Assembly (NCBI GenBank): GCA_027036775.1
Contig: JALWDS010000044.1
Span: forward strand, 6,260-70,259
Direction: 5' to 3'
DNA length: 64,000 nt
Source of the DNA: Archaeoglobaceae archaeon
GTDB lineage: Archaea; Halobacteriota; Archaeoglobi; Archaeoglobales; Archaeoglobaceae
Every line of letters begins with the position of its first letter. The first letter of the stretch is position 1. Position numbers and translations under genes: made by a program. The notes beneath the pieces were generated by a model, which saw only the letters and a list, made by a program, of their open reading frames with translations, was not told the origin of the DNA and made no database searches. Below, in pieces: positions 1-33,693 of the stretch.

Positions 1-507
1 GAATCCCTTCTCACCTTGCAAGATGCATCTTAGCTTCCTGTAAGTTGCGTATCTCCTCAAAGCTTCAAGCATGCTCGTAGTGTAGATGTTCTGCCCCGTT
101 GAGATGTCCGCATAGATTTCATCAATTCCAAGTTTTACAAGCTCCTTGAAGATGTACACAATCGTATTTTCCACAGAACCTTCAAATCGAACGGTGTATT
201 TCCTAGAGTAAACTCCAACCGATGGAATAATCAAAACTTCTGCATCTACGTCTAAAAGCTCAAGAATTCTATCCTTAAACTTCTCCCTATTTTTCAGCAA
301 TTCAACTGCCTCATCAATATCGTTTTCAATCTCAGTAATCAGGCTATCTGGAGCTAATAGAACAACTTTCGCATCTTTACGATCTTTCAACCATTTGTAA
401 ATTGCGAAAGCTGACAACTTCTCAAAGTATTCCTTCTCATCGATAACGAATCTAAGTTTCTTGTAAAATCTTGGAATTCCCAACACCTGAAGGATCGCAG
501 TAGTCAT
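1..507 (-). CDS. CARF-type CRISPR-associated protein (Csx1/TM1812-like), N-terminal 169 codons; gene continues past the window edge
   Basis: Absent from the ORF track because it runs off the window. Manual translation from ATG (505-507, minus): MTTAILQVLGIPRFYKKLRFVIDEKEYF...VKLGIDEIYADISTGQNIYTTSMLEALRRY. It has a Rossmann-like N-domain and a D-I-S-T-G-x-N motif resembling the DxTHG signature of CARF Cas accessory proteins. It lies 6 nt downstream of cas6 on the same strand. Confidence 0.5.
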   Translation of the reverse strand, partial: MTTAILQVLGIPRFYKKLRFVIDEKEYFEKLSAFAIYKWLKDRKDAKVVLLAPDSLITEIENDIDEAVELLKNREKFKDRILELLDVDAEVLIIPSVGVYSRKYTVRFEGSVENTIVYIFKELVKLGIDEIYADISTGQNIYTTSMLEALRRYATYRKLRCILQGEKGF

Positions 508-513: not shown

Positions 514-1287
514 TCATTCAATCCTAACGTATTTTATCTTTCCCAAACCCGATGTTCTCCCACCGCCGACATTTGAATACTCTCCAAAGCTGAGAAGTCT
601 TGACGTAATCCTCGCAAATTCCTTATTATACGTATCGTCTGGAAGCGAAAAGCTGACTTCTCCAACGAAACCAACCGACCATAACCCTTTCTTCAGCAAA
701 ACTTTCTCCGTTCTGATGTTGCAATCAGATACCGCAATACCCCATTTGTCGAGCCATTCCCTATACTCTTTCGGCAAACTTGAAACGTATGCTTCGTAAA
801 GCCTTGCCAAACTTCTGAATAGAAGTTGCGGGAGGGGTAGTGAAACGAACCTGTAATCCAAATTTGGAACTCTAAAATAGCACGGCGTTAGAAACTTTAT
901 TCTGAATTTTCTAATTTCTTCATCTTTAAAATCGTCAACGTATCTGACCTTTATCCTATCCAATTCGTTGAGCATGCCAAGAAAGGGGATTCGATCGATA
1001 CTTACTAAATATTCTTTTAGAGCCTCTCCAACCTCCTCAACGAACACCGAAATCGTAAAGGAGTATTTTTCTCCTTCTACAAGCTTTTCAATAGAGTAGT
1101 TATTGCTCTTGAATACTGGAGAGGTTGCAAAAGGTGAAAGCCCCTTACTGGTATGCAATTCTTCGGCTAAAATCCTATTTATCTTTCTTAAAGTCCAGTA
1201 TAAAAATCCCCTAACGTAAGCCCCGGAATACATCCAGAAGTACCTCGATTCCGATGCTATGAAATCAATGGTGAAGTGGACTATCAT
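514..1287 (-). CDS. cas6: CRISPR-associated endoribonuclease Cas6
   Basis: 257 aa RAMP-like protein with the typical C-terminal glycine-rich loop (FGEYSNVGGGRTSGLGKIKY). Directly upstream of the CARF gene. Confidence 0.85.
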   Translation of the reverse strand: MIVHFTIDFIASESRYFWMYSGAYVRGFLYWTLRKINRILAEELHTSKGLSPFATSPVFKSNNYSIEKLVEGEKYSFTISVFVEEVGEALKEYLVSIDRIPFLGMLNELDRIKVRYVDDFKDEEIRKFRIKFLTPCYFRVPNLDYRFVSLPLPQLLFRSLARLYEAYVSSLPKEYREWLDKWGIAVSDCNIRTEKVLLKKGLWSVGFVGEVSFSLPDDTYNKEFARITSRLLSFGEYSNVGGGRTSGLGKIKYVRIE

Positions 1288-1482
1288 TTCAACCGTAAAT
1301 AATCAAAACTTAAAAAATTCACTATGGTGGTTTCGAAAAATTATCAATTAAAGTATAGCTTCTCTTTTAACTACATAGAATAATATAATATATAGAATAA
1401 TATTTAGTTATACATATTTATTTTTTATTAACTATCAATTATCTCTTTAGCCAAAGCATATCTATCCAATCTTTTAGCATCT

Positions 1483-1503
1483 GATTAACTACGATAGTTA
1501 ATC
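1483..1503. repeat. Island palindrome copy 1: GATTAACT-ACGAT-AGTTAATC
   Basis: Perfect 8-bp inverted arms with a 5-nt spacer, 38 nt upstream of the HTH gene start. Confidence 0.9.
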
Positions 1504-1519
1504 AAAAGGTTGAAATAGT

Positions 1520-1540
1520 GACTAACCGTAATGGTTAATC
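1520..1540. repeat. Island palindrome copy 2: GACTAACC-GTAAT-GGTTAATC
   Basis: 7/8 arm complementarity. Ends at the base before the ATG at 1541. With copy 1 it flanks an AT-rich TATA-like stretch (1509-1516). Confidence 0.9.
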
Positions 1541-1837
1541 ATGGCTTTGGTAAACTGGCTCAAGGTTTTGAGAGCTTTACAGATGGCTGAAGAAATCAAG
1601 AGAAATCTCGACTACTGTACTAATCTTATACAGAGAAACGCATGCAACTGTAAACACGGTGAACTCTGTCAAAGAGCCTTAGCAATTGCCACAGGTTTAT
1701 CAGATAATGCCATCAAGAACATGTTGCTTAGACTCGAATTGTATAGAGAAGAGTTAGGAGACTGGTTCCCGTTCGAGATCAGAAAAATTGATGCCGGGAT
1801 GAACCAACCGAGAAAGTTCATAAGGCTAAGATCCTGA
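1541..1837 (+). CDS. Small helix-turn-helix DNA-binding protein, function unknown
   Basis: 98 aa. Has an HTH-like segment (QRALAIATGLSDNAIKNMLLRLE) followed by a basic wing-like tail. The gene is bracketed by palindrome copies 1-3. Confidence 0.55.
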   Translation: MALVNWLKVLRALQMAEEIKRNLDYCTNLIQRNACNCKHGELCQRALAIATGLSDNAIKNMLLRLELYREELGDWFPFEIRKIDAGMNQPRKFIRLRS

Positions 1838-1856
1838 TTAACCACTGTGGTTAATC
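1836..1856. repeat. Island palindrome copy 3: GATTAACC-ACTGT-GGTTAATC
   Basis: Perfect arms, extendable to 10 bp (CTGATTAACC/GGTTAATCAG, 1834-1858). Overlaps the TGA stop codon of the HTH gene. Confidence 0.9.
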
Positions 1857-1955
1857 AGATGTATAATAATTAAATCAACTGTTGAGCTAAGCCAAAGATT
1901 ATAACAACGACACTACCAACCACAAAGCATAGTAATTATATCGAGGTGGGAGGTA

Positions 1956-2539
1956 ATGTACTTTGATCCGAGGCCGAAGAGAAAGAGGGAAGGTTTATAC
2001 GATAGAGATAAAGAGCTTGAAAAGTGTTGGAAATATTCGATTACTTCAAGAGTAAGGATTTTCTCGTAAAGGGATTCGAGCAAGTTGGATTGGACGTTGA
2101 AAAAGATGTTACAAATTATGCTTGCGAGAAGCTCGACGGAATCGTCGGCTGGCTCGTTCACTTCGGCTTGAAATGCTTGGAGAAGAAGACTTCTAAGGAC
2201 GTGGTTGAGGAAGTTTTAGGTGAAGCCAGCAAAATTTCGTTCGAAGAGCTCAACAAGTTTTTAGAAAAGCACAGACCAGCAGAAAAAAGAATTTTTGAGA
2301 TCGCAAAAGCCATCGCAACGGGCAAGAAAACTTGGAGTGAGATTAAGAGACACTTGGAATCGGTGGATCAAAGATCTATTCCCGACGCTTCCTTAAACAG
2401 AGCTATCAAAACTCTAATTAAAGCCTCCTTCGTGGAGAAAATCGTCGATGGTAGAAATGTTTACTATCAGCTTACCGATCCAGTTCTAAAAATTCAATTA
2501 ATCGTTACGGTTAATCAAACTTCAAAATTTATCGAATAG
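1956..2539 (+). pseudogene. Remnant of an archaeal AAA ATPase (PF01637-type ATPase plus C-terminal wHTH) with the P-loop domain deleted
   Basis: A strong SD (GAGGTGGGAGGT) precedes an ATG at 1956 that encodes MYFDPRPKRKREGLYDRDKELEK, the typical N-terminus of this family (compare FHNREKEI in the intact paralog at 62534). The frame changes near 2018-2026. It then continues as FDYFKSKDFLVKGFEQVGLDV...GIVGWLVHFG...KKTWSEIKRHL...YYQLTDPVL, the C-terminal third of the family. No Walker A motif is present. Confidence 0.6.
2496..2516. repeat. Island palindrome copy 4: AATTAATC-GTTAC-GGTTAATC
   Basis: Left arm matches the consensus at 6/8. Lies inside the last codons of the ATPase remnant. Confidence 0.7.
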
Positions 2540-2559
2540 AGAAAAACATCGAGAGAAAA

Positions 2560-3142
2560 GTGATAACAGCTCATCTAAAGCGGGTGAGAACCATGCTGAT
2601 CGGGATAGGGGGAGCGACGCTCTCGGGAAAGACAACTATAACTCTTAAACTCTGCGAAGAGCTATTGAAGAGAGGTTTTAGGGTAGGGATAGTCCTGGAA
2701 TTTGCGGAGACCGTAGCGAAAGAAATGGGATACAGTAAAATCGAAGAAGTCAGAAGAAATCCTAAAAAATACTCCCAATTCGAGCTTGAAATTCTTTTTA
2801 GGAAGGTAACGCTCGAAGAACGATTAAAAGAGCGATTTGACTTCGTGATAAGCGACACCACTCCAGCAGAAGTTATCCTTATACTCTAAACTCTACTTAC
2901 CTTACGAATTATTAGAAATCGTGGAAGGTATAACTAGGAAATACCTTAACAGATATGACGTGGTTTTCTTACTCGAACCTCTAAACGTTCAATCTAACAA
3001 CGGATTCAGATCAAAACAAGACATAGCGAGCAGAAAAAAGCACTATGCAATTCTAAAAAACATTTACCCCCAATACGTAGAAATTCCAACGGCACCGATA
3101 GACGAAAGACTGAAACTAATTCTAAACAAACTACTATCATAA
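2560..3142 (+). pseudogene. P-loop NTPase/kinase (AAA_28-like) split by one frameshift
   Basis: ORFs 2560-2889 and 2921-3142 are in different frames. The first carries Walker A (GGATLSGKTT). The second frame is open from about 2868 (SLYSKLYLPYELLEIVEGITRKYLNRYDVVFLLEP) and continues the same fold. A single frameshift near 2865-2875 would restore a protein of about 185 aa. Confidence 0.5.
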
Positions 3143-3144
3143 GT

Positions 3145-3165
3145 GAGTAACCACTACGGTTATTC
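3145..3165. repeat. Island palindrome copy 5: GAGTAACC-ACTAC-GGTTATTC
   Basis: Starts 2 nt after the stop at 3142. The 21 nt TAACCACTACGGTTATTCAAT (3148-3168) are identical to 11461-11481. Confidence 0.85.
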
Positions 3166-3249
3166 AATTGCGGGTAGATCGTAACGTTGTCATATTATGA
3201 CACCTCCCATAACGGTAATTGTCAAGTCCTGACATCTACTATCGCGAGT

Positions 3250-3270
3250 GATTAACCACAGCGGTAAATC
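3250..3270. repeat. Island palindrome copy 6: GATTAACC-ACAGC-GGTAAATC
   Basis: 7/8 right arm. The left flank GCGAGTG (3244-3250) is shared with copy 7. A further half-site GTTTAATC lies at 3288-3295. Confidence 0.8.
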
Positions 3271-3661
3271 AACCTCTGGTCCATAGCGTTTAATCAATCA
3301 AGGATGGTAATCTACTTCAAGTTTCCAGCCTTTTCTTTTTCAATTCGATGATTTCATCAAGCTTAAGTTTCCTAAGCTCTTTTTCAAGCTCTGGAGTTCT
3401 TAGCTCCTCAACTTTCAACCTAGGATCCAACACTTTCCTCTCAAGTTCTTTAATCCTTTCTCATTATCTCTCAAGAAAATACCTCTCAAAGCCTTTAGAG
3501 CGTTCCAGTAATCGTATTAACGTGGTAGAATTTGGTGATTTTTTTTCTTCTTTCTTTTATCTGAGTGTGTTTAAGTACTACTTTTTAGGTTTAGTACATA
3601 TGGTATCTATCTCACATAGTTGGATAATTACAGGTGTAAGCGTATGTGAAAGGGGTGAAAG

Positions 3662-3811
3662 TTAAGCTTTTCTAATGACAATTTCGCCATTTTTCTCGTA
3701 GTAAACTAAGAGATCACCCTCTTTTAGTCCGAGCTTTTCGACTACTGCTCTTATGATCGTTGTTTTGAAGCCTTTGCTAACTTTAGATGTTCCCAATAAC
3801 TTTTCACCCAT
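3662..3811 (-). CDS. AbrB/SpoVT-fold antitoxin-like protein (orphan, 49 aa)
   Basis: Below the ORF-track size cutoff. Manual translation: MGEKLLGTSKVSKGFKTTIIRAVVEKLGLKEGDLLVYYEKNGEIVIRKA, a looped-hinge-helix pattern like the VapB at 11892. No toxin gene follows, only a start-less coiled-coil remnant (about 3325-3470, minus). Confidence 0.55.
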   Translation of the reverse strand: MGEKLLGTSKVSKGFKTTIIRAVVEKLGLKEGDLLVYYEKNGEIVIRKA

Positions 3812-3891
3812 GAGTTACGATTGACCGAAAAGTACTTATAGTTACTGGTTCTAAAAGTTACTAAAGTACTAAAAGTTCGAGAGGTGGCAAA

Positions 3892-4201
3892 ATGTTTAGA
3901 ATCCCTCGAGTCCTCACGAGCATTGAAACAATGAGAGAAATCTGCGAGGAGTTGAAGTATGGTAGTAAAAGTGCTAGAGAGCTGGCTGAAAAATTAGACA
4001 AGTCGGAAAATACGGTAAAGCAGTATTTGAACTCTATGAAGAGGTTTAAACTCGTAAGGTTCAACTCTAAAAGAAGGATACTTCTACGCAATTGGCGGTA
4101 AGTCTGTAAAAGTACCACAATCTCTCTTAGACTGGCTTAAGAGTAACGCAGAAATAAAGGAGTGCAAATCAGAGCCAACTTATTACGGAACTTGTAGCTG
4201 A
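3892..4201 (+). pseudogene. Winged-HTH regulator, probably frameshifted
   Basis: The 69-aa ORF (3892-4101) has an HTH (SARELAEKLDKSENTVKQYLNSMKRFKLV). The +1 frame continues from about 4075 as EGYFYAIGGKSVKVPQSLLDWLKSNAEIKECKSEPTYYGTCS and stops at 4199-4201, which looks like the missing wing and C-terminus. Confidence 0.4.
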
Positions 4202-4226
4202 GAGTTTTAATTTTTTATTTTTTATT

Positions 4227-6038
4227 TTAATAGATAATTCTAAGAATAATTGTAAGCACAAAACCAATTAAACAAAGCCATAGCAAGTTGACGAATGGTA
4301 TATATCTCAACAATATCATTGTAGGTTTGTTTTTGAAACAGCTAATGTTCTTCTCAAGCACTTTAGAGTAGTTTAGAGAAAATTGCGTAGCTAAGTGCTT
4401 AGCAATCGTAGGAGAGTATTTGTTAACAACTTTTATGCTCCAAACTATTAAGTCGAGCTGTTCTAACTCGTTAGATGGTATGACGAGATAGTACTGACCT
4501 AACAAATCGTTAACGATTACGGGATCCGTGTATATAGCTTCACTTGGCCGTTTTAGGGCTTTAATAACGTATAAATAGGTCGTAAACTTCACTTTAAGCC
4601 CGTCACAAGTTGTATATGTTTCTTTAGCTATCACATTGGGTATCTTTAGCCCATGAACATTCAAGTACTCGATAGGCTTTTCGTAATAGCGATGTGATTG
4701 GCAGATTTTATATTCCCACGATTCGTAAAACGCAAAGGGCCATGCCACGAAAAACGAAACTATAATCAGTCCAACTAATACGTGCATGACTAGCAAAACG
4801 TTATCTTTGATTATTACCTTCCTTCCGGATAACAATTTGAGAATAGTGTATACAACTGGGGGTACGATACCTAAAATCAAAGCGCTCGTAAGATTTGGTG
4901 CGGATTCTCTCGTAATATCTACTAACCATCCGAAGATAAAAGAGACAGCTGTAATAAATAGGACGACAGTTATAGACTTCTTTGAAGATTTTACATTCTC
5001 ATTAGGCGTTACTACTAAAATTATAGTTAGTATGACGAATGTAACAACCATGTATGCTAAAGGAGATATGGTTCTCCCGAAACTGGCTGTAAAGATAATA
5101 GCTATTGCATAAAGTATCGCAAGCATTAGTAATAGTTTTCCTCCGAATTTTACCCCCCGCTCGTCGTATAACTTTAGTAATTCGAGAACTTTACTTCTGT
5201 AATTTCTATATATATAATACGCAAAAATAAGAACGATAATTATGAAAACATAACTGGCTGGACTGATTTTCAAAAGACCATACCAATGAAGAGTCGAGAC
5301 GCCTATTCTAGTGAAGCAAGCGGAGAACCCGACGAAAAAACCTAACAGAGACAACACAGACTTATCTCGCACATGCCAATAGGACGTAAAAACCAGCCAC
5401 GGTATCAAAAGTGAAACCTCGACGGGATCCCAACCCCAAAAACCGCCCCATCCTAATGTAAAATACGCCCAAACTGCACCCATTACATTGGCAAGAGATA
5501 AGAAAAGGTATGCTAATCTTAATATCCTTAAACCTATGTTGTATCTTTGAGTAGCTAACAAAGCTACATAAAGACAAAAAGCGTAGGATAAAAATGTAAA
5601 GAAAGGATGTAATATTGCGTAGATGTTTCTAAATGTATGATCTAAGGATAGTCCATCTCCTAATATAGTTCTATTTAGGTAGTACGCTCCTTCCAAAAAC
5701 GCTGATAAAACGAGTAGTACACAGGTGATAACAAATACTCTATTTGTTTTTTTAGTGAATAAAGCCAACAAAGCGTAAACTAGGTAGCACCAAACCAAAA
5801 AACCGCTTGAAGTGCTCCACGAAGCTACAAATTTTAACGATATAGGTAGTTCTTTAGAAGAAGTTAAGAAAACATTGAGCAACGTAAAATCGTTAATCAA
5901 AAACGATAACACATATAGCACGGCACTTACGATTGCTAAGATGTATCCCGCATACGCTAAACGATTTTCGAGCATTGATAATGATAACAGTAATACAGAA
6001 ACAATAGCAATCCAGCCAGTGTAGTGAATTTCGAGCAT
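4227..6038 (-). CDS. CcmF/NrfE-like heme-handling membrane protein (WWD domain)
   Basis: 603 aa, polytopic. Contains a canonical tryptophan-rich WWD motif (LGWGGFWGWDPVEVSLLIPW, residues 195-214) flanked by conserved His (AILHPFF, YWH). Also has an ASWSTSSGFLVW segment as in CcmF. Low-GC codon usage. Confidence 0.7.
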   Translation of the reverse strand: MLEIHYTGWIAIVSVLLLSLSMLENRLAYAGYILAIVSAVLYVLSFLINDFTLLNVFLTSSKELPISLKFVASWSTSSGFLVWCYLVYALLALFTKKTNRVFVITCVLLVLSAFLEGAYYLNRTILGDGLSLDHTFRNIYAILHPFFTFLSYAFCLYVALLATQRYNIGLRILRLAYLFLSLANVMGAVWAYFTLGWGGFWGWDPVEVSLLIPWLVFTSYWHVRDKSVLSLLGFFVGFSACFTRIGVSTLHWYGLLKISPASYVFIIIVLIFAYYIYRNYRSKVLELLKLYDERGVKFGGKLLLMLAILYAIAIIFTASFGRTISPLAYMVVTFVILTIILVVTPNENVKSSKKSITVVLFITAVSFIFGWLVDITRESAPNLTSALILGIVPPVVYTILKLLSGRKVIIKDNVLLVMHVLVGLIIVSFFVAWPFAFYESWEYKICQSHRYYEKPIEYLNVHGLKIPNVIAKETYTTCDGLKVKFTTYLYVIKALKRPSEAIYTDPVIVNDLLGQYYLVIPSNELEQLDLIVWSIKVVNKYSPTIAKHLATQFSLNYSKVLEKNISCFKNKPTMILLRYIPFVNLLWLCLIGFVLTIILRIIY

Positions 6039-6097
6039 GGGTAGGCTAAACGCGCGTAACTTTAAAAAGCTGGCGCTTTAAATTGTCATCATGGTAA

Positions 6098-6179
6098 TTA
6101 CGAATAAAAATTGACAATGTTTTCTAAACTCAATTTAAATAAATCTTTCCACCCCGAAAACCAAACGAGGTGAGAAAAA
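6098..6179 (+). promoter_or_regulatory. Repeated promoter/5' module, copy A
   Basis: A 32-nt box TTACGAATAAAAATTGACAATGTTTTCTAAAC (6098-6129), a TATA-like TTTAAATAAA (6134-6143), and CCACCCCGAAAACCAAACGAGGTGAGAA (6149-6176), then ATG. Matches 9985-10060 and 10381-10431. Confidence 0.7.
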
Positions 6180-6668
6180 ATGAACGAAATGCGGATAAGA
6201 ATCCTAAGTAAATATAAAGGAGCACTATTTGTAATTTTGGTATTAACATACGCGTTAATTATGCTTATCCTAACAAAAAATTATCAATGCGTTGAGGGTA
6301 GAGCTGAAATTCTCGAACATTGTGTTAACTCGGGAAAAATACCTAAAGAAGTCTACGAATACGCTCTACTATTCCAACAAAAACACCCTAAAGCAGAATT
6401 TAAATTTTGTGAAAAGGGGAGATCGTGTATAATCTACATAATTCAAAAAAACAAAGAGGATCCATTACTATACACTCGATTCAATAAATCGAAAAATACA
6501 ATAATTATATTTTATGATAATAAATACACTAACAACTACATCATTTTAAATGCAAGCAAACCTAACGCAGTTCTAGTAACTATGAAAACAAATAACGGTT
6601 TTAAAACTTATAGCTTAAATGTAAGTTCCTCTGACCTAGATATTATTCTAAGTAGAATTAAAAAATAA
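6180..6668 (+). CDS. Membrane-anchored protein, unknown function (paralogous domain with 7054-8238)
   Basis: 162 aa with an N-terminal TM (GALFVILVLTYALIMLILT). The segment IPKEVYEYALLFQQKHPKAEFKFCEKGRS...IIIFYDNKYTNNYIILN aligns with LPECVLNFAKFYSELHPDVTFELVKEGDR...VVFFYEPYKARDYITIT in the neighbouring gene. Confidence 0.6.
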   Translation: MNEMRIRILSKYKGALFVILVLTYALIMLILTKNYQCVEGRAEILEHCVNSGKIPKEVYEYALLFQQKHPKAEFKFCEKGRSCIIYIIQKNKEDPLLYTRFNKSKNTIIIFYDNKYTNNYIILNASKPNAVLVTMKTNNGFKTYSLNVSSSDLDIILSRIKK

Positions 6669-7053
6669 TTAATAATTATTTTTAATAAATTAGATTTTTA
6701 ATTTTGTTTAATGTTTTTTGATCATTCATTATATCTAATATGGTATAAACGAGATAACAACATAATATTCCATTATAAGTTTTGAAAAATGATTATCGCT
6801 GTATCCCGTTTATATCTCCATAATAAATCACATAGTCATTTTGTTGTCGATAGTAACTTTCAGCAACTTGTTCTGCCAACCTAAATAAAGCGCAACTACT
6901 CCATGTGCCCACCTACCATAAAGCATTCGAGTTCTATGTAGATGACTACCACGGAATAGGTACTCCAATAGCTACGTGCAATCTACCATAATCTCTATTT
7001 ATTTATAATTTTTTAATTTTATATTTTTAAATTATAATAAAAATATATAATAG

Positions 7054-8238
7054 TTAACGGACGGTGTAGAATACAGCTTTTGAATTGCTTGGCATTGGGA
7101 TTGAGTGCCAATCTGGATCGGGAACTACGTCAAATAATGCATATTTAACAGTTTTTCCGTCTAATTTGATGATGACCCCTGGAATCTCCATGAAAATACT
7201 TTTAAGATTATCTACAGTGAAGGCCCTCTCATTTAAAGCTACTAAATAGGGATTCATAGCAACGAGTCCTCTTAGATTTGGAAACACGTCTTGGATAGGT
7301 GTATATTCAAACATTTTAGCATCAAATCCTAAATTCTTTAATACGAGAACTTCCGCCAATGCGTAGAGTTCATAGTACTTACGATAAGACAATGGACCTT
7401 CCTCTCCACCGCTAAGCAGTAATCCTTCTAGAATCCCCCCAACATTTACTTTGATCTTCTCTACCTTGGATCCTTTAAAAGCAAATGTAGTCAATTCGTA
7501 AGTTTTAAACCAATTTTCGTTTTCGCTAATCCACCAACCGTTATTAGTTAACACAGTTCTAAAGAATTCATGAAGGATTAAAAACTCCCCCTCTTTTCCC
7601 AATCCGTAATCCTTAGCAATTTTCCTAACTTGCTCTGCAATTTCTTTCGAGATTTTCTTATCTTCAGAGTTTAAAGTTACCGTCGCCCACTTAACTTCAT
7701 AAGACGATTTACTGGCTTTTACAGATACTACCCTTTGTGGACGCAAGATCACTGATACATTTTCAAGAAGAATTGGTCTCGTCTGTAAGAACAGAGCCTG
7801 AGGTTTTTCCACCCTCTTTGGCAAATCTACAGTTATTGTAATGTAATCTCTCGCTTTGTAAGGTTCGTAGAAGAACACAACTGTCTCTAAAACATCTCCC
7901 TTATCCTTAATGTAAACACCTCTCCAAACTTCCCAAAAATTATTCCCTTCGTAAGCGTAGAGTTTAGTTCTATCCCCTTCTTTAACGAGTTCAAAAGTCA
8001 CATCTGGGTGCAGTTCCGAGTAAAATTTTGCAAAATTTAGAACGCATTCTGGTAAATTTTTACTATACGTTTCTATATCTTCTAAGGAACCTTTTGCAAT
8101 AACCACTTTTGTTGCTGAACATGATAGCAAACTGAAATCATAAATAAAGAGTGCTAACAACAGTATTCCCCCTACTATGTAGAACGACCATAACTTTTTA
8201 TCTCCCGTTACATTTCCTTTCTTCTTTTTCATAATCAA
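7054..8238 (-). CDS. Membrane-anchored extracytoplasmic protein, unknown function
   Basis: 394 aa with an N-terminal TM (LWSFYIVGGILLLALFIY). Its N-domain is paralogous to the 6180-6668 product. Low-GC. Confidence 0.6.
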   Translation of the reverse strand: MIMKKKKGNVTGDKKLWSFYIVGGILLLALFIYDFSLLSCSATKVVIAKGSLEDIETYSKNLPECVLNFAKFYSELHPDVTFELVKEGDRTKLYAYEGNNFWEVWRGVYIKDKGDVLETVVFFYEPYKARDYITITVDLPKRVEKPQALFLQTRPILLENVSVILRPQRVVSVKASKSSYEVKWATVTLNSEDKKISKEIAEQVRKIAKDYGLGKEGEFLILHEFFRTVLTNNGWWISENENWFKTYELTTFAFKGSKVEKIKVNVGGILEGLLLSGGEEGPLSYRKYYELYALAEVLVLKNLGFDAKMFEYTPIQDVFPNLRGLVAMNPYLVALNERAFTVDNLKSIFMEIPGVIIKLDGKTVKYALFDVVPDPDWHSIPMPSNSKAVFYTVR

Positions 8239-8336
8239 AGATTACTATTAAACTATTAATAAAGTTTACTATTGATCTATATAGAAACATAACTATATTA
8301 TATATGCGTAGAGTTATAAACAATCTTTTTTAGTTC

Positions 8337-8590
8337 GACAACACCAAAATGGATTAGAGAAGATCTCACTGACCTCCTCCCCGCCCTAAAGGGCGAGAGT
8401 TCCCCACAGGGGAATCGGCTCACATCCGTCTCACGACTGCATTGCTTTCGGTTGGTGTCATTGGGCCGGGTCAGAGCGACCCTCTAAGGAGGTGTTAAGA
8501 TGGGGGAGAATAAAAACATTTCGGAAAGAGCGGGCTTTCCTTCCCGCCTTGAAAGGCGAGTCTTCCAGCCCGCAAACTCGGTGATGAGAA
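8337..8590 (+). ncRNA. GC-rich structured RNA candidate, family unknown (strand tentative)
   Basis: A GC-rich segment of about 250 nt sits inside an ORF-free, very AT-rich spacer. Hairpins: 8382-8395 (CGCCC/GGGCG), 8400-8414 (UUCCCC-ACA-GGGGAA), 8468-8482 (GGGUC/GACCC), and a nested helix 8530-8573 (GCGGGC/GCCCGC around CGCC-UUGAAA-GGCG). A possible closing helix pairs 8341-8347 with 8453-8459. There is an internal duplication (8375-8403 versus 8538-8566, 23/29). A TATA-like TTATAAA lies at 8314-8320. Confidence 0.4.
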
Positions 8591-8639
8591 AAAACACTAA
8601 AGAAGCTAAGCATATACTGAGCTTAATTCTTATGGGTAT

Positions 8640-9170
8640 TTATCTTCTTACAGTATCGATATAGGAGTTAATATTGTAGCGACCGGTGTAATAGACATAT
8701 AAGTAGTTTGGTTTGCCTACGTATTTTCCGGAAAATGGATTGAGGTATTTGTCTCTGTAGGATTTGCAATCGAAATTCTTAACAGTAACTATCATTGAAG
8801 GTGTGGCGAATCTTGGATAAGCTGGAGTTTCTACTGAAAATTTGTCATCTAATATTTTAGCGCAGTCCATGTACTCTTTTCTTAGTGGTAGATCCACCTC
8901 ATTGCCTCTGGCTATAATCTTGCAGAATGTTACATTTACATATTTCGTAAGATTTCTGGCAATCTTAAGTGCTTCTTTATCTGCGGGGGTGTTTGCATAG
9001 AAGAAATATACATGGATTGTTTGGTTTGGATAGAGTCTATCTCTGAGTTTAGGTGTTAAGGTTTGAGTTGGAAAATTGGTAATTATTTTTGTAGTTGTGC
9101 AAGGAGTTACAGTAAAATGTGGAATTGTTTTCTCGGTGTGGTTTATAGTAGGTGTTATTATCTTCTTCAA
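8640..9170 (-). CDS. Hypothetical protein, thioredoxin-fold-like without CxxC (paralog of 9245-9937)
   Basis: 176 aa with a TTG start and no ATG near the 5' end. LYPNQTIHVYFFYAN and PSMIVTVKNFDCKSYRDKY align with LNPNNVKMIIYADSR and PSIILIMKNGSYKTYSGLDSYKDY of the divergent neighbour. Confidence 0.45.
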   Translation of the reverse strand: MKKIITPTINHTEKTIPHFTVTPCTTTKIITNFPTQTLTPKLRDRLYPNQTIHVYFFYANTPADKEALKIARNLTKYVNVTFCKIIARGNEVDLPLRKEYMDCAKILDDKFSVETPAYPRFATPSMIVTVKNFDCKSYRDKYLNPFSGKYVGKPNYLYVYYTGRYNINSYIDTVRR

Positions 9171-9244
9171 CGATTATTGGTTTTCTGCACGTGAAATAGT
9201 AGATCCTATTCTACTGGGGAACAAATGAAAAATATACGGTACCA

Positions 9245-9937
9245 ATGTCAATAGACTGGCTATACGCTCAGATTACCGGCAAATTCCCCAAACCACCAGC
9301 TTACGCTAATAGAACATACCACGTTTACAACGAGGAATCGGAGAACATTACCGCTTTAGTCCTTGGCCCCAACTACATTCCAGAACCTATAACACCTCTC
9401 AACCCTAACAACGTTAAGATGATTATCTACGCGGATTCGAGAGGGATAAACGATGAATTCTTCATACCCTTGATGGACAACTACACGAAGAAAATAAGAG
9501 AAATAATACCAAATGCAAAATTCATCAAGATAGTAGACTGGAGCGCTTATTACCACCGCAAATACATAATCACTGATCCACCCGGATATGAGAACTATTG
9601 GGACAAGTATGTTATACCATGCACTAAATTTTACGATTATAGATCAAACAAATGGCTCCTAGACTTTCCAAGCATAATTCTAATTATGAAAAACGGTTCC
9701 TACAAGACCTACTCTGGATTGGATTCCTATAAAGATTACTTTGAAGTTGTAAGGAGTACTGGATACAGAGACAACCTAATAGCACACCCACCAATTGACA
9801 AGTTATTCTTAGATATTAAAGCATACTACGAAAAAAAGAAAGATACTGCCAAAGTCGAAATGATCAATAAAGTAATCAAAGAACTAAAAGAAATTAAAGA
9901 AATAATCAAAGAAAACTACGATAAACAACATCCATAA
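9245..9937 (+). CDS. Hypothetical protein, thioredoxin-fold-like without CxxC, with a Lys/Glu-rich C-terminal helix
   Basis: 230 aa. Divergently transcribed from its paralog across a 74-bp spacer. Confidence 0.5.
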   Translation: MSIDWLYAQITGKFPKPPAYANRTYHVYNEESENITALVLGPNYIPEPITPLNPNNVKMIIYADSRGINDEFFIPLMDNYTKKIREIIPNAKFIKIVDWSAYYHRKYIITDPPGYENYWDKYVIPCTKFYDYRSNKWLLDFPSIILIMKNGSYKTYSGLDSYKDYFEVVRSTGYRDNLIAHPPIDKLFLDIKAYYEKKKDTAKVEMINKVIKELKEIKEIIKENYDKQHP

Positions 9938-9984
9938 TTTTTTATAACTTTCAATATTTTACTTTTTTAATTAATTTAACTTTT

Positions 9985-10060
9985 TTACGAATAAAAATTA
10001 ACAATGTTTTCTAAACATTTTAAAATTTTTTTCACCCCGAAAACCAAGCGGAGGTGAGAA
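9985..10060 (+). promoter_or_regulatory. Repeated promoter/5' module, copy B
   Basis: The 32-nt box (9985-10016) is 31/32 identical to copy A. It is followed by TATA-like TTTTAAAAT and TTCACCCCGAAAACCAAGCGGAGGTGAGAA. The GTG inside GGTGAG (10054) is the start of the downstream ORF. Confidence 0.7.
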
Positions 10061-10353
10061 TTACGAGACTGCACGGTTTCGACGTCGAGGACGAGAAGTG
10101 CGACGGTTGCGGATGGAGAGTTAGCAAGCTTTACGTCCTCGAAGATTCGAAAGAGAATGCGAAAAAAATGCTGAACGAGATAGGATTGTGCGCTCATTGT
10201 ATCTGCGACCTCCTCGAAGAGAACGACTACCTCATAGTGCGAGACCTCGTAAAGCTCGAATGTCCGGAGTGCAAAAGAAGATTCCTTATCGAGACGAATT
10301 ACGAAGGAAACGTAACGTGTCCGTACTGCGGAGAGCTCGTCGAGTCCAATTAA
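10054..10353 (+). CDS. Double zinc-ribbon protein, unknown function
   Basis: 99 aa with a GTG start. Four Cys pairs: CDGC, CAHC, CPEC, CPYC. Confidence 0.55.
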   Translation: MRITRLHGFDVEDEKCDGCGWRVSKLYVLEDSKENAKKMLNEIGLCAHCICDLLEENDYLIVRDLVKLECPECKRRFLIETNYEGNVTCPYCGELVESN

Positions 10354-10380
10354 CTTATCACGATTTTTTATTTTACAATT

Positions 10381-10431
10381 TTTATTTATAGTTTTTTTCC
10401 ACCCCAAACCCGAGCGGAGGTGAGAAAAGAA
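10381..10431 (+). promoter_or_regulatory. Repeated promoter/5' module, copy C (lacks the 32-nt box)
   Basis: TATA-like TTTATTTATA (10381-10390) and CCACCCCAAACCCGAGCGGAGGTGAGAA (10399-10426). The following ORF starts MNEMWLRIS, compared with MNEMRIRIL after copy A. Confidence 0.6.
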
Positions 10432-11190
10432 ATGAACGAGATGTGGTTGAGAATCTCGGAAAGAGATTGGCAGAAGTACACGGGAGAAGTTAAGAGCGTC
10501 GAAGCGGGAGTGGAACTAACCCCGGAGTTCGTTAAAAAGGTGAACGAGATTTCGAACGGAAACGTGTTCTTCGTGGAAACGAGGGACGGGATTAAGATTA
10601 CCTACGCTTGCGGTCGCGGAAGTTACTACAAAGCGGAGGAGAAACTCAGAAAGTTAATAGAAAAATTCGTAATAGAACGGATAGCTAAGAACAACTACGA
10701 AAGAATCGGAGAGAACATGATTAAGATAAAAGAACCGATCACAACGGAGAACGTCGATCTAACTGAATTCAGCGAACTGATTAAGAAAATCGAAGAGGAA
10801 ATCAAGAGAGAGGAAGAAATTAAAAGGAAGATAAAAGAACTCAGAAAGAGGTTAGAGGAAAAACTTTCCCAGAAGATCGATAACTACGAGATTCGCAGTA
10901 ACGGGATCGACGTCACGATAAAGGGTGTAACGATCTATGTTCCGTTCAAGGACTTGGAAGAAGCTATCAAAGAGGTCGAAAACCTCGAAGAAAAGATAAT
11001 TGAGAAGCTAAAGAAAGAAATCGAATACCTCAAGAAGGAACGTGCGGAGATCGAAAGAAAGTACGAAAAGTTGTGCGAATTCGTAAGGAACAAGGGCTTA
11101 ACTAAAGATTTTCTCGAATTCTTAAAGGAAGAAAGGGAGAAAGAGGTCGAAGAGGACGTAATGGACGAGTTCGAGGAAATCTTCTACTAA
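10432..11190 (+). CDS. Coiled-coil protein, unknown function
   Basis: Start refined to the ATG at 10432 (the track uses the GTG at 10420). A globular N-domain of about 100 aa is followed by long Glu/Lys heptad-like repeats. Confidence 0.6.
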   Translation: MNEMWLRISERDWQKYTGEVKSVEAGVELTPEFVKKVNEISNGNVFFVETRDGIKITYACGRGSYYKAEEKLRKLIEKFVIERIAKNNYERIGENMIKIKEPITTENVDLTEFSELIKKIEEEIKREEEIKRKIKELRKRLEEKLSQKIDNYEIRSNGIDVTIKGVTIYVPFKDLEEAIKEVENLEEKIIEKLKKEIEYLKKERAEIERKYEKLCEFVRNKGLTKDFLEFLKEEREKEVEEDVMDEFEEIFY

Positions 11191-11207
11191 TTTTTTACGG
11201 AGCGAGT

Positions 11208-11228
11208 GATTAACCGTGGCGGTTAATC
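11208..11228. repeat. Island palindrome copy 7: GATTAACC-GTGGC-GGTTAATC
   Basis: Perfect arms, 17 nt after the stop at 11190. Confidence 0.9.
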
Positions 11229-11357
11229 AAACTGATAATAATAAGATACAAGTATAAATTTTACAGATTTACGAGGAGAAATTAACAGAACGAGGAGTTA
11301 ACGATTATTCAAGGAGTTTTTGATCTTTTAACCCCTTTTTAGTGGTTTTCGCAGAGT

Positions 11358-11378
11358 TATTAACTATAGCGGTTAGTC
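11358..11378. repeat. Island palindrome copy 8 (degenerate): TATTAACT-ATAGC-GGTTAGTC
   Basis: 5/8 arm complementarity but the same spacing and the same TTAAC/GGTTA cores. Confidence 0.55.
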
Positions 11379-11402
11379 AGAAGTTCGACGATTTCAAAAC
11401 TT

Positions 11403-11424
11403 TCGAGTGGTGTTCACCACTCGA
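11403..11424. repeat. 22-bp perfect palindrome TCGAGTGGTG-TT-CACCACTCGA flanked by a 12-nt direct repeat
   Basis: 10-bp arms. The direct repeat TCGACGATTTCA occurs at 11385-11396 and 11421-11432. Confidence 0.85.
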
Positions 11425-11457
11425 CGATTTCACGATTGTCGATTTGGAGTCGAAACT

Positions 11458-11478
11458 GGTTAACCACTACGGTTATTC
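11458..11478. repeat. Island palindrome copy 9: GGTTAACC-ACTAC-GGTTATTC
   Basis: 24 nt beyond the vapC stop codon. Confidence 0.85.
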
Positions 11479-11502
11479 AATGTAGTGTGGCTTAGGTGCT
11501 CT

Positions 11503-11895
11503 TCACCTTATCCAGAGTATGTCGGGATAAACACCCTCAAATTCTCTATCACCCGTGACTATAATTCCTTTTTTATCGATAGCTGTTGCGACGACGAAGG
11601 CATCCGCATAAGATAGACTATGCATAGCTTTAATCCTCCCGGCAGTTAAAGCTAAGCTCTCATTAACTTCTACGAACTCAATCGGCAACCTTTTTACAAT
11701 TGCTACGGCTTCATTAGCCTTTGCCATTCCAAATTCTCTTGCAACTATATAATAGACCTCTCCGAGATTAACGTAGTTCATGAACAGCTTTATTTCACCT
11801 TTCTCGGCCTTATCGATGATTTCTTCAACTTTATCTGCTCCTTCTTCGTTACCGAGATACGCAAGAATGGCAAAGCTATCTAAAACGTAATTCAT
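11503..11895 (-). CDS. vapC: PIN-domain toxin VapC
   Basis: 130 aa. Has the PIN acidic residues (N-terminal D in MNYVLDSFAIL, internal E, C-terminal D in YADAF and TGD). Overlaps vapB by 4 nt. Confidence 0.85.
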   Translation of the reverse strand: MNYVLDSFAILAYLGNEEGADKVEEIIDKAEKGEIKLFMNYVNLGEVYYIVAREFGMAKANEAVAIVKRLPIEFVEVNESLALTAGRIKAMHSLSYADAFVVATAIDKKGIIVTGDREFEGVYPDILWIR

Positions 11896-12122
11896 CTTTT
11901 CATCTCCCTCTCTTTCTCCTCCTTCTTATATTCGCTAATTATCTCATCTAACTTTCTCTTAAACTTTAGAAATCCTCTCCCTTTAGTCTTAGGAATAGGA
12001 ACGATAACTATTTCACCCCCAAAATCTAAAATCTCCACTTCGTTCCCAGCTTCAATCCCATACTTCCTCCTCAATTCAGCTGGCAGAACTATCTGTCCCT
12101 TAGTTGAAATTTTAACTGGCAT
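11892..12122 (-). CDS. vapB: AbrB/SpoVT-family antitoxin VapB
   Basis: 76 aa. MPVKISTKGQIVLPAELRRKYGIEAGNEVEI is a typical looped-hinge-helix N-terminus. Confidence 0.85.
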   Translation of the reverse strand: MPVKISTKGQIVLPAELRRKYGIEAGNEVEILDFGGEIVIVPIPKTKGRGFLKFKRKLDEIISEYKKEEKEREMKR

Positions 12123-12166
12123 ACCATCACCGTATAACGTTTTACCAATTTAGATATATGTTTTAC

Positions 12167-12182
12167 TTTACGGTTATTCAAG
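12167..12182. repeat. Island palindrome, right half only (TTTACGGTTATTCAAG)
   Basis: Matches the right half plus flank of copies 5 and 9. Lies 45-60 nt upstream of the vapB ATG. Confidence 0.5.
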
Positions 12183-12268
12183 GTAGAAAGAGCTATTCCG
12201 AGGGTTGATTAAGGGGTTGATGTCTGTTCTATTGAGAGTTTGGGGGGTTTAAAGCAGTTTCTGAAAAG

Positions 12269-13408
12269 CTATAGCGAGCTATAACATTTATATGCGTGTT
12301 TGATACCTTTTAAAGCGATAACGTAAGCGGAGGCGGTATGTTTATCCACACCTAACTTTTTCATCAGCTTTTCACCGATCTTACTCGTATTAGCTGGATT
12401 GACGTAAGAAGTTTTCAAACCGTATAAAGGTGCTTTCAATCTAGTCATTTCAATCACTCTGCTTCTAAAGGTTTGAACGGAGTAGTTGTAGTTTTTGCTA
12501 AATCTTCTACCGTTTTTAATCCAGAATAGCTTTAGCTTACCTAAAGCAGACAAATCTTCCAAGTATATTCTGTTTACTCCGTGATGGTAAGCGTACTTTA
12601 GCATTTCATGGATTTTCACACCTATCAAAGACCAAACTCTTCTTCTATGCATATTTCTCGATTTAACTTCTTTAAACCAAAACGTCTTATAATCTCTTAA
12701 TTCTCCGTTTTGATTGACAATTGCAAGGTTTATCCTATCTAAGTTTACGTCAACTCCAGCTACGTTTTTACCTTTCGGTTGATCGTGCCTTCTCATAATT
12801 TCCAAATAAAAGTCGTAGTCCACTGTAACTTGAACTTCACCATGTGTAAACAGAACTCCTTTGCGGTTACCAAATTGCTTCAATACAATCCTTGCATAAT
12901 AAGGTTGCATGTAGAACCATAAGTTTCCAAGTATTGGTTCATATCTCTTTGGAATTGTCGGTTCAACGATTACGTAGGATTTATTACCTTCAAAATCGAA
13001 TGTTAGAATTCTGAAGGATCCGTCTCCTTGGATCTTGATGTTCTGATTCATCTTTTTACTTTCCCCTTCACACTGAAACAATAACCAATTATTCCAGCTT
13101 ACGTCTTCTAATTTAACTTCGTCGAATCCAAATTCTTTGTACAATCGGTTCAACTCGTTGACAGACTCGATAACTCCGTAAACTAAATCTATCGCACCGT
13201 CAACGTATCTCCTGTTCGGTAGAATTTCGTAACCGACCTTTCGATACCTCTTATACATCGAAAATTGAGATAATGGTGGTTTACCATCTTTCAAAAACTC
13301 GTTAAAGACTTTCAGCGCTACCACTCTAAAAAGCTTAGCTGTTGAAATCAGTTTTCTCGCTATATCTCCAGATGCGTTGAACGGTAAGGTTAGGGTTATA
13401 TGTTCCAT
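12269..13408 (-). CDS. TnpB-like (IS605 OrfB-type) RuvC nuclease lacking the zinc-ribbon domain
   Basis: About 379 aa from the ATG at 13408 (the track uses the TTG at 13426). RuvC-I is VAGVDVNLDRINLAIV, RuvC-II is RIYLEDLS, RuvC-III is VNPANTSKIGEKLMKKLGVDKHTASAYVIA. No CxxC...CxxC is present between the TSK and DKH segments, where TnpB normally has its zinc finger. TATA TTTATAAA (13431-13438) lies at -30 to -23 of the ATG, suggesting a leaderless mRNA. Confidence 0.65.
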   Translation of the reverse strand: MEHITLTLPFNASGDIARKLISTAKLFRVVALKVFNEFLKDGKPPLSQFSMYKRYRKVGYEILPNRRYVDGAIDLVYGVIESVNELNRLYKEFGFDEVKLEDVSWNNWLLFQCEGESKKMNQNIKIQGDGSFRILTFDFEGNKSYVIVEPTIPKRYEPILGNLWFYMQPYYARIVLKQFGNRKGVLFTHGEVQVTVDYDFYLEIMRRHDQPKGKNVAGVDVNLDRINLAIVNQNGELRDYKTFWFKEVKSRNMHRRRVWSLIGVKIHEMLKYAYHHGVNRIYLEDLSALGKLKLFWIKNGRRFSKNYNYSVQTFRSRVIEMTRLKAPLYGLKTSYVNPANTSKIGEKLMKKLGVDKHTASAYVIALKGIKHAYKCYSSL

Positions 13409-13462
13409 ATTTGGATATTCCACCAAAACGTTTATAAATCTATCGGTTGTTAGTATTAACGT

Positions 13463-13506
13463 GCCCCGACCGTTCCGAGACCCGTAGGAGAACTGCGGTG
13501 AGGGGC
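13463..13506 (+). other. GC-rich hairpin (GCCCC..ACCG / CGGU..GGGGC)
   Basis: Pairings: 13463-13467 with 13502-13506, 13469-13472 with 13496-13499, and an apical 13473-13476 with 13487-13490. Starts about 23 nt downstream (plus strand) of the palindromic TATA at 13431-13438. Confidence 0.5.
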
Positions 13507-13527
13507 GTCGGGTGTCCGTGATGACTG

Positions 13528-13572
13528 TCTCCGCTACAGAAAGTTATAGATTAATACAATATGTAGCGGAGA
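13528..13572. repeat. Perfect 11-bp inverted repeat TCTCCGCTACA / TGTAGCGGAGA with a 23-nt AT-rich loop
   Basis: Arms at 13528-13538 and 13562-13572. It straddles the stop codon of the truncated thioredoxin ORF. Confidence 0.85.
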
Positions 13573-13747
13573 TCCAGAACGGTATGGCTACAACACCGAA
13601 ACTCCTTGCAAGTTCTCTGTTTTCCAAGACGTTTACTTTGATCAGTTCGACATCTCTAAAACCTTTCAGGACCTCTTCGAGGATATTTTCAACGTCTCTG
13701 CACGACTTGCACCTTGGCGAGTAGAACTCCACCACGACCTTTTTCAT
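13544..13747 (-). CDS. Small thioredoxin/glutaredoxin-like protein, C-terminally truncated or replaced
   Basis: Start refined to MKKVVVEFYSPRCKSC (ATG 13745-13747), because the track's N-terminal extension overlaps the tRNA. A CKSC redox motif and SFGVVAIP are present. The usual segment of about 20-25 aa after the cis-Pro is replaced by 11 unrelated residues (FWISATYCINL) encoded by the inverted repeat. Confidence 0.6.
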   Translation of the reverse strand: MKKVVVEFYSPRCKSCRDVENILEEVLKGFRDVELIKVNVLENRELARSFGVVAIPFWISATYCINL

Positions 13748-13818
13748 GTCGTTCGTTAGGTTCCACCATATAAAACTCAACCGAAAACGATATATTTTCT
13801 CCGAATTACTAATAATGA

Positions 13819-13891
13819 GCGGTCGTAGTCTAGCCTGGCAGGACACGGGCCTCCCGAGCCCGTCGCCCGGGTTCAAATCCCGGCGGCCGCA
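13819..13891 (+). tRNA. tRNA-Gly: tRNA-Gly (anticodon CCC)
   Basis: Manual cloverleaf. Acceptor GCGGUCG/CGGCCGC (one G-U pair), anticodon stem CGGGC/GCCCG with loop CUCCCGA, T arm CCGGG-UUCAAAU-CCCGG, discriminator A. No encoded CCA. Confidence 0.9.
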
Positions 13892-32792: not shown

Positions 32793-32858
32793 GTCAAGAA
32801 TTGGCCAATCGATAGAAATAGTTTTTGTGACAGATTTATAATAATTACGATTAAATAA

Positions 32859-33572: not shown

Positions 33573-33587
33573 AAAAAGAATTGCTGG

Positions 33588-33639
33588 TACAGATATATTA
33601 ATGCTTTGGTTTTATTGATACAGATATATTAATGCTTTG
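33588..33639. repeat. Tandem direct repeat, two copies of 21 nt (TACAGATATATTAATGCTTTG) with a 31-nt period
   Basis: Copies at 33588-33608 and 33619-33639 in the divergent promoter region. Each contains a TATA-like ATATATTAAT. Confidence 0.85.
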
Positions 33640-33693
33640 AAAGCTTAAACGACCTAAATATATAAATCCTTTACCCCTAACTCTTCAGTTAGT

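Follow-up and report, generated by a model that had tools for sequence, protein, structure and literature searches.

A low-GC accessory region of an Archaeoglobaceae genome that ends at an IS-like unit within a split thioredoxin gene

Background

How did a block of low-GC DNA with CRISPR-cas genes, a toxin-antitoxin cassette and a gene for a TnpB-like nuclease come to lie beside an intact tRNA-Gly(CCC) gene in an archaeal genome? This question is raised by a stretch of 64,000 nucleotides (hereafter the window; positions 6260-70259 of contig C44) from an Archaeoglobaceae archaeon of a hydrothermal vent. Its genome of 1.53 Mb is a metagenome assembly of 48 contigs with an estimated completeness of 99.9%. 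The names of the closest protein homologues and the run records indicate an Archaeoglobus-like archaeon of hydrothermal-vent metagenomes. A first-pass annotation of the window had described a 12.5-kb mobilome/defence-type island between cas6 and tRNA-Gly. Our analysis indicates that this interval probably makes up the rightmost 13.5 kb of an accessory region of low G+C that is larger than described and specific to the strain. The region is a mosaic that is bordered by an insertion sequence (IS) and did not enter through tRNA-Gly. The island contains CRISPR ancillary and adaptation genes, a 98-aa gene with operator-like palindromes, gene fragments, an HgcC-type miniature transposon, a VapBC cassette, and a TnpB-like IS.

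Positions given without a contig name are those of the window. Contigs of the studied genome (G000) are denoted as C1, C6, C37, C44, and so on, and G003, G005, and G007 are relatives. L029 and L030 are contigs of other metagenomes, L037 comes from another assembly of the same sample, and X1-X4 are sequencing runs (Logan contigs). Comparisons at the DNA level were made with five related genomes.

The right edge of the island

The island ends on the right between 13580 and 13581, in codon 56 of a thioredoxin gene, and this edge is the left end of an IS-like unit (Table 1). The loss of thioredoxin homology, placed before at 13575-13580, is thereby refined to 13580/13581. The 3' remainder of the gene is found on another contig (C37:36431-36529), where it adjoins a p309 homologue. 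Relatives have an intact thioredoxin gene encoding 92 amino acids. In G007 the gene order is p309, thioredoxin, tRNA-Gly(CCC), and DUF460, and G005 has the same left part. Both thioredoxin junctions are reproduced, with 99.9-100% identity, in a second assembly of the same sample.

Two empty sites were found for the unit. At the first, L029 and L030 join C6:1667-2578 straight to the window sequence running from 12251 to 11457 (VapB-VapC). At the second, a 6.7-kb contig of X4, 99.6% identical to the window over 2,420 nt, leads from the thioredoxin 3' sequence directly into 13581; the same is found in X3. Near-identical strains have an intact thioredoxin gene and a VapBC cassette joined to C6-type DNA, and the island DNA is physically continuous with C6-type DNA in these sister strains. 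In the studied genome the IS200/IS605-like unit is inserted into codon 56 of thioredoxin, right after ATACC, and the target is not duplicated. Since the sister strains have the VapBC-C6 join without the IS, the join between the IS and VapBC must be secondary.

Besides these two empty sites, two miniature copies and a left end that stands alone on C6 served to set the ends of the unit. In the miniature copies, on C36 and C32, the sequences of 13410-13583 and 12244-12311 are fused, and the joint of this form (12297 to 13457) is present in three runs. ACC precedes GTTCTGG in 4/4 left ends, and the two empty sites show insertion without duplication of the target. The left end has a perfect hairpin of 11 bp (fold z-scores of -3.1 and -4.1), and the right end is unstructured (z of +0.75).

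The gene of the unit (12269-13426) had been named as that of a TnpB-like nuclease, and it is a distant TnpB-like gene. The protein matches the NCBIfam models of TnpB and Cas12f2 only at residues 273-350, with E values of 3e-4 to 1e-3, far below the cut-offs (a weak RuvC match). It has no match in the local copy of Pfam and no sequence match to solved structures. Its homologues carry PF27229, a family distributed across Archaeoglobi and Thermoproteota. By eye, it is without the zinc-ribbon segment. Eight canonical TnpB genes above the family cut-off exist in the genome. A transposable unit with a little-studied TnpB-like protein of PF27229 is hereby defined by its exact ends, by ACC as its target motif, and by two empty sites.

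A rival explanation is an artefact of assembly or binning, in which low-GC DNA of a plasmid or of another organism was wrongly joined to the chromosome. The genome is a bin of 48 metagenome contigs, the join crosses repeated IS ends, and a contig of the second assembly breaks at the right end of the IS. However, the repeated right end is 52-68 nt long, which is less than the contig-end overlaps of this assembly (127 nt), and among the Logan contigs of the source run there is one that spans from VapB into this right end. The junction between the thioredoxin 5' part and the IS is reproduced in an independent assembly, and the complementary 3' fragment is in the same bin. The depth of the island contig is also similar to that of the core (165-407 for the island and about 319 for the core in the source run), which is compatible with a single copy. 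We therefore regard a wrong join as very improbable.

tRNA-Gly(CCC) as a candidate integration site

The tRNA-Gly gene had been proposed as the place where the island entered. By this explanation, the island is a decayed integrative element that was inserted at tRNA-Gly(CCC) by a site-specific integrase, after which the integrase gene and one of the att copies disappeared. tRNA-Gly(CCC) is a true att site in the genus. In G005, an element of 23.5 kb (C1:714,197-737,650) lies between tRNA-Gly(CCC) and DUF460. It encodes a PF16795 integrase, a serine recombinase, and an MCM helicase, and it also has a homologue of the ORF at 1541-1837; its end, before DUF460, is a partial tRNA-Gly copy starting at position 32.

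The studied genome also keeps an att copy, an exact 42-nt copy of tRNA-Gly positions 32-73 at C1:78545-78586. It forms the middle junction of two tandem 6.7-kb elements at tRNA-Asp (C1:71,832-85,244; 82-95% alike), whose far end is a 59-nt tRNA-Asp fragment. Each of the two has a PF16795 integrase (168.6 bits), a 96-aa gene whose product is 76% identical to that of the ORF at 1541-1837, and TAACC-N5-GGTTA palindromes. It looks as if an element targeting tRNA-Gly entered its tRNA-Asp-targeting relative by homologous recombination. The island has the 98-aa gene and the palindromes in common with such elements. This 42-nt sequence is the sole partial copy in the genome: the search for partial copies of tRNA-Gly that the first-pass annotation had advised thus led to integrase-bearing tandem elements on C1, and its statement that there is no duplicated tRNA fragment is true of the window but not of the genome.

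The junction contradicts entry at tRNA-Gly. The elements just described lie 3' of the tRNA, whereas nothing is inserted on that side here: the tRNA gene is complete and DUF460 follows 62 bp after it, as in G007, implying that attB is empty. The island is on the 5' side, ends 238 bp from tRNA-Gly with the thioredoxin remnant between them, and its junction is formed by the end of an IS that has ACC as its target. No tRNA-Gly repeat was found in the low-GC DNA.

Searches for integrases agree with the earlier remark that the interval has none. With PF00589, nothing over the cut-off was found genome-wide (the best score is 16.7 bits, on C8); a Xer-type gene may be divergent or unassembled. PF16795 has five copies in the genome, only on C1, C8, and C31, and the one PF00239 gene (serine recombinase) of the genome is on C6. 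When the integrases of C1 were used as tblastn queries, nothing was detected on C44, C37, or C6, and these three contigs contain no integrase of any kind, nor an integrase fragment, except for the one serine recombinase of C6. Entry through tRNA-Gly is therefore hardly credible for this island. Island hallmarks beside a tRNA gene can mislead: the tRNA is a real att site in the genus, yet the edge of the island was probably made by an IS and recombination between its copies.

Composition and extent of the low-GC block

In 1-kb windows, G+C is 0.30-0.43 from position 1 to about 13,500 and 0.45-0.50 beyond (47% in the flank). The whole genome has 44.9% G+C; among its 1-kb windows the median is 45.8% and the 5th percentile 36.5%. 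Tetranucleotide deviation of the 5-kb windows covering 1242-13,700 reaches the 90.7-98.9th percentile among 558 genome windows. G+C at third codon positions (GC3) is 0.26-0.44 in the island ORFs compared with 0.553 +/- 0.058 in core ORFs, mostly at or below the 5th percentile of the latter. The sole island ORF with a core-like GC3 is that at 10420-11190 (0.578). The compositional deviation suspected before is thus borne out by computed profiles.

The extent of the block is different from what had been described. The low-GC part at 4.2-10.0 kb is only the lowest portion of a block that measures at least 19.8 kb (C44:1-19,839), as low G+C extends leftward past cas6 to C44:1, 6.26 kb left of the window. 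cas6 itself is confirmed as a gene, but it is not an edge: G+C is 0.36-0.43 on both sides of it, and no compositional or structural edge is seen. The island is therefore not a 12.5-kb unit bounded by cas6 and tRNA-Gly; on the left, low-GC DNA runs to the contig end, and the right edge is at 13580/13581.

Matches in the DNA of the five relatives are nearly limited to cas genes, IS, and repeats, plus one 80-nt match in the gene of the CcmF-like protein. The region thus combines deviant composition with absence from close relatives, and the thioredoxin gene is intact in sister strains. These data support the mobilome/defence type given in the first-pass annotation, for an accessory region of foreign composition.

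Further dips in G+C (0.38-0.41) are seen at 32,000-34,000 and 61,000-64,000 of the window, and they may be other small accessory regions.

How the island came to lie here

The other thioredoxin half is also followed by low-GC DNA, which begins at C37:36530. It starts with a degenerate HgcC-type element without about 6-7 terminal nt, followed by Orc1/Cdc6 in two pieces, a ParB-like gene, ParA, csm5, csm4, csm3, csm2, cas10, and a CARF-HTH regulator. The block ends with a CRISPR leader and array 90% identical to those of C44. Beyond the array are TatD, DUF2148, nadC, an aspartate-dehydrogenase gene, nadA, small genes, an intact tRNA-Gln(CTG), and conserved core genes. The join between TatD and the array is reproduced in another sample, and no integrase or partial tRNA-Gln was found near this tRNA-Gln. 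The terminus next to the thioredoxin 3' part was considered as a right end of the IS (about 8/10 nt are alike), but the 200-nt homology to the HgcC-type element explains it better. The CRISPR array was also considered as the cause of a contig break or of a chimeric join on C37 and was rejected: the arrays are internal to contigs, and the order TatD-array-leader recurs in another sample's assembly.

L037 is a strain variant of this locus, in which 1.7 kb are inserted between TatD and the CRISPR array of C37; the insert contains the gene of a 354-aa AAA_15/AAA_21 ATPase and a 163-aa ORF.

We infer that the island DNA became attached to the chromosome at thioredoxin through recombination between copies of the IS left end. 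The event may have been the co-integration of a plasmid or a chromosomal rearrangement, and it would have left the thioredoxin 3' part beside the low-GC block of C37 with its Orc1/Cdc6, ParAB, and type III csm genes. Within the island, cassettes may have been swapped at palindromes of 21-23 bp, building the interior. C6 keeps a solo left end of the IS where the sister strains join VapBC to C6-type DNA. These data support the earlier suggestion that the island is composite and was assembled by another mechanism.

Several observations weigh against this explanation. The expected reciprocal product (C6 flank, IS, and thioredoxin 3' part) was not seen, on which ground a simple reciprocal exchange between two IS copies was rejected. 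On C6, only about 140 nt of the left end are present before other DNA begins, and the thioredoxin 3' part adjoins the degenerate HgcC-type element and not a right end of the IS. These three points together require at least one further event. The low-GC block of C37 runs unbroken into core genes and tRNA-Gln, so the topology cannot be that of a single clean insertion. A Y1 transposase (PF01797) was not found in the genome, so the IS must have been moved by a transposase that either has been lost or escapes recognition. It may also be that the palindromes are just operators, which happen to be the sole conserved sequence between cassettes. Moreover, a mixture of strains is present in the sample, as the variant L037 indicates, and the bin is a metagenome assembly in many contigs.

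A rival history would be that one plasmid-like element of several tens of kb, made up of the Orc1/Cdc6-ParAB-csm block of C37, C6, and C44:1-19,839, was inserted once into thioredoxin codon 56, its continuity being hidden by contig breaks and repeats. The two halves of thioredoxin are broken at one and the same phosphodiester bond, each has low-GC DNA of plasmid type beside it, and the palindromes and the 98-aa gene are common to C6 and the island. The outward-facing ends also have some sequence in common: both start with GTT, and about 9/15 of the first nt match by eye. However, C37 itself goes on from the low-GC block to tRNA-Gln and conserved core genes, and because of this continuity the two halves cannot simply bracket one clean insert, unless there is an undetected mis-join. 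The TatD-array join is reproduced in the assembly of another sample, and in sister strains VapBC is joined to C6-type DNA without the IS. A single insertion is therefore unlikely, and joining through IS copies with later events is preferred.

Palindromes and the exchange of cassettes

C6 is a plasmid-like contig of 47.5 kb with 36.8% G+C. It has two ParA-like genes and a full-length ORF with an Orc1/Cdc6-like start, the likeness being read by eye from N-terminal sequences, and its serine recombinase matches Pfam Resolvase. In the low-GC pool, Orc1/Cdc6 thus exists as fragments on C37 and as this full-length ORF on C6, whose N-terminus is alike by eye. The 98-aa protein of the island is 88% identical to its counterpart on C6, 76% to those of the two C1 element copies, and 41% to that of the tRNA-Gly element of G005. 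Its cassette has 84% DNA identity to C6:27500-27921, and this homology begins at the palindrome at 1486.

The motif TAAC[CT]-N5-[AG]GTTA is found 46 times in the genome, compared with about 8 expected. C6 accounts for 20 of these, and the island and the C1 elements have seven each. The similarity of L029 and L030 to the island stops exactly at the edge of the palindrome at 11461, and the homology of the 2024-2539 fragment ends 6 bp before the palindrome at 2497. Judged from the roughly six-fold enrichment and from confinement largely to C6, the island, and the integrase elements, the 21-23-bp TAACC-N5-GGTTA palindromes could be the recombination sites of a cassette-exchange system of the Archaeoglobaceae mobilome and not mere operators, an idea that we put forward as quite doubtful. 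Such exchange might be served by the lone serine recombinase of C6 or by the 98-aa protein, which is always behind a palindrome pair. If this is true, VapBC, the 98-aa gene, and captured chromosomal fragments would be shuffled among plasmids, integrative elements, and islands in an integron-like way.

Other features of the island

The features of the island and its flanks are listed in Table 1. Repeated palindromes and duplicated promoter modules, both noticed at first reading, are present as a palindrome family and three modules. VapBC and the orphan AbrB, the latter by eye, are present as well. Two of the three decayed genes that had been reported are listed.

Table 1. Positions of features of the island and its flanks in the window
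Feature	Position	Strand	Evidence and remarks
csx1, N-terminal CARF part	1-507	-	Pfam Csx1_CARF, E 3e-14; runs off the left end of the window, continues at C44:5450-6766
cas6	514-1287	-	Pfam CRISPR_Cas6, E 1e-14
Cassette with 98-aa ORF (1541-1837)	1484-1905	+	TAACC-N5-GGTTA palindromes at 1486, 1523, and 1839; no Pfam match
Decayed gene, C-terminal winged helix-turn-helix (wHTH) fragment of an ATPase	2024-2539	+	92.5% DNA identity to C18:117769-118230; weak MCM_C wHTH match
Split P-loop NTPase, decayed	2560-3142 (ORFs 2560-2889, 2921-3142)	+	Weak P-loop family matches on first ORF; none on second
Orphan AbrB/SpoVT-like 49-aa ORF	3662-3811	-	ORF list; family by eye
Small winged-helix regulator	3892-4101	+	HTH_24 / HTH_5, E 1e-4
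CcmF/NrfE-like heme-handling membrane protein	4227-6038	-	Pfam Cytochrom_C_asm, E 8e-14; NCBIfam nrfE far below cut-off; GC3 0.367
Promoter and 5' module, copy 1/3	6098-6203	+	Other copies at 9985-10060 and 10385-10455; direct-repeat families D2, D7, D8, 81-97% identity
Four very low-GC ORFs	6180-6668; 7054-8238; 8640-9170; 9245-9937	+; -; -; +	GC3 0.26-0.43
HgcC-type miniature element, about 207 bp	8369-8575	-	RNA match at 8359-8484, Rfam RF00062
Zn-ribbon protein; coiled-coil protein	10054-10353; 10420-11190	+	Pfam Zn_Ribbon_TF; each behind a promoter-module copy
VapB-VapC cassette	11457-12244	-	VapC 11503-11895, PIN, E 1e-18; VapB 11892-12122, MazE_antitoxin, E 2e-12
IS-like unit, 1,336 bp	12245-13580	-	Left end 13441-13580, TnpB-like gene 12269-13426, short right end 12245-12311
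Thioredoxin 5' fragment, codons 1-55 and two bases of codon 56	13581-13747	-	Pfam Thioredoxin, E 5e-11
tRNA-Gly(CCC), intact	13819-13891	+	ARAGORN; positions 32-73 (13850-13891) are the 42-nt att core
DUF460 gene, first core gene on the right	13954-15792	+	Pfam DUF460, E 1e-50; 62-81% identical in relatives (80% in G007)

The fragment at 2024-2539 has its counterpart on C18, a contig of core composition, from which it was copied or with which it is shared. It was considered as the remnant of an MCM helicase element because of the Pfam match. This was dropped, since the ORF is 93% identical to a fragment at C18:117524-118156, which by eye is like the ATPase paralogs of C6. The MCM_C match is probably misleading; by eye, the C18 ORF resembles the C6 paralogs, which are read as archaeal DUF234-type ATPases.

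The CcmF-like protein has a paralogue with 29.5% identity on another contig of core composition (C47:21451-23211), and the island gene is therefore a second version of it, of foreign composition. The four ORFs within 6180-9937 have no Pfam or NCBIfam match; the interior genes without an assigned function are probably of envelope type. The VapBC cassette has the palindrome at 11461 as its left bound and is 98% identical to L029 and L030. A joint from 11480 to 13850 is present in run X1, with a shorter side of just 21 nt.

The GC-rich spacer at 8359-8484 is not novel. It is the HgcC RNA of Rfam, as it matches RF00062 over the full length (model positions 1-130) with 69.5 bits, the gathering score being 50. 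The RNA is part of a repeated element of 207 bp, which has conserved ends with CAGAG as the left flank and AGGAGGTCAG as the right terminus. Five more near-full copies exist in the genome (C14:27573-27786, C47:27085-27308, C1:66547-66731, C37:18217-18431, and C8:46313-46434), as well as shorter pieces, and the relative G003 has more than 25 matches. On C46 and C27 the 3' hairpin region of the element is also found near canonical TnpB genes, at a distance of about 100-150 nt from their Zn-ribbon domain. This suggests that miniature elements carry HgcC as a guide-RNA scaffold for TnpB. HgcC/sotRNA was linked earlier to the ends of IS1341-type tnpB (PMC4615843). A literature search gave nothing on SSO2105. 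The "orphan" HgcC RNA is here tied to a miniature element present in multiple copies.

To the left, C44:1-6400 contains a CRISPR leader and array, csa1, cas1, cas2, cas4, a CARF gene, and csx1, and the end of C44 overlaps the small contig C28. No exact record of the Cas1 protein was found in other assemblies. The leader exists in three copies (C44, C37, and C4) with 90-99% identity, and a swap at this repeated sequence is conceivable. On C4 it is an orphan leader with a mini-array of 3-4 repeats (C4:26,650-27,343) in DNA of core composition, 98.8% identical to the C37 leader. A degenerate fourth copy is found at C44:4058-4276.

Comparison with known systems

The island resembles several known systems in part. 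Archaeal integrative elements that target tRNA genes and have recombinases of PF16795 ("archaeal phage integrase") have the same 98-aa hallmark gene (41-76% identity) and the palindromes. Unlike them, the island has neither an integrase nor an att repeat and does not adjoin the tRNA at its 3' end. Integrons are similar in having short imperfect palindromes at gene boundaries, and one breakpoint of the strain mosaic is exactly at such a palindrome. In contrast to integrons, there is no integron-type integrase beside an array, the sole serine recombinase of the genome is on C6, and the palindromes may be plain operators.

The IS-like unit is similar to the TnpB-only members of the IS200/IS605 family (the IS1341 group) and to their miniature derivatives, palindrome-associated transposable elements (PATEs). 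It shares with them a TnpB-like gene of RuvC type, an ACC target without duplication, a subterminal hairpin at the left, and miniature copies made of the left and right ends. The element at 8369-8575 is also alike, carrying HgcC RNA with a hairpin like that of a right end. The unit differs from the family in that its protein scores far below the TnpB cut-offs, belongs to PF27229, and by eye lacks the zinc ribbon, no Y1 transposase was found in the genome, and the right end of the unit has no significant fold.

The closest precedent is found in Archaeoglobus fulgidus strain 7324. Its InsI and InsII are large strain-specific low-GC regions with CRISPR arrays, cas genes including cas6, extra orc1/cdc6, an hgcC RNA gene, and mostly hypothetical genes (PMC5732400). 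All of these components (low G+C, CRISPR-cas, orc1/cdc6, and hgcC) occur here on C44, C37, and C6. In contrast to InsI and InsII, the disrupted gene here is thioredoxin, the tRNA-Gly beside it is undamaged, and an IS end forms the junction. Likewise, the tRNA-Gln at which the block of C37 ends is intact and has no long partial copy, and the total size is blurred by contig breaks. Because InsI and InsII carry the same kinds of cargo and the link between HgcC and tnpB was noted before, the island is a further case of an already known type of archaeal genomic island, one whose border is unusual and well defined. It shows a type III CRISPR-Cas locus, Orc1/Cdc6-ParAB modules, and toxin-antitoxin cassettes travelling together in one low-GC pool of the Archaeoglobaceae, and so extends the single published case, that of A. 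fulgidus 7324.

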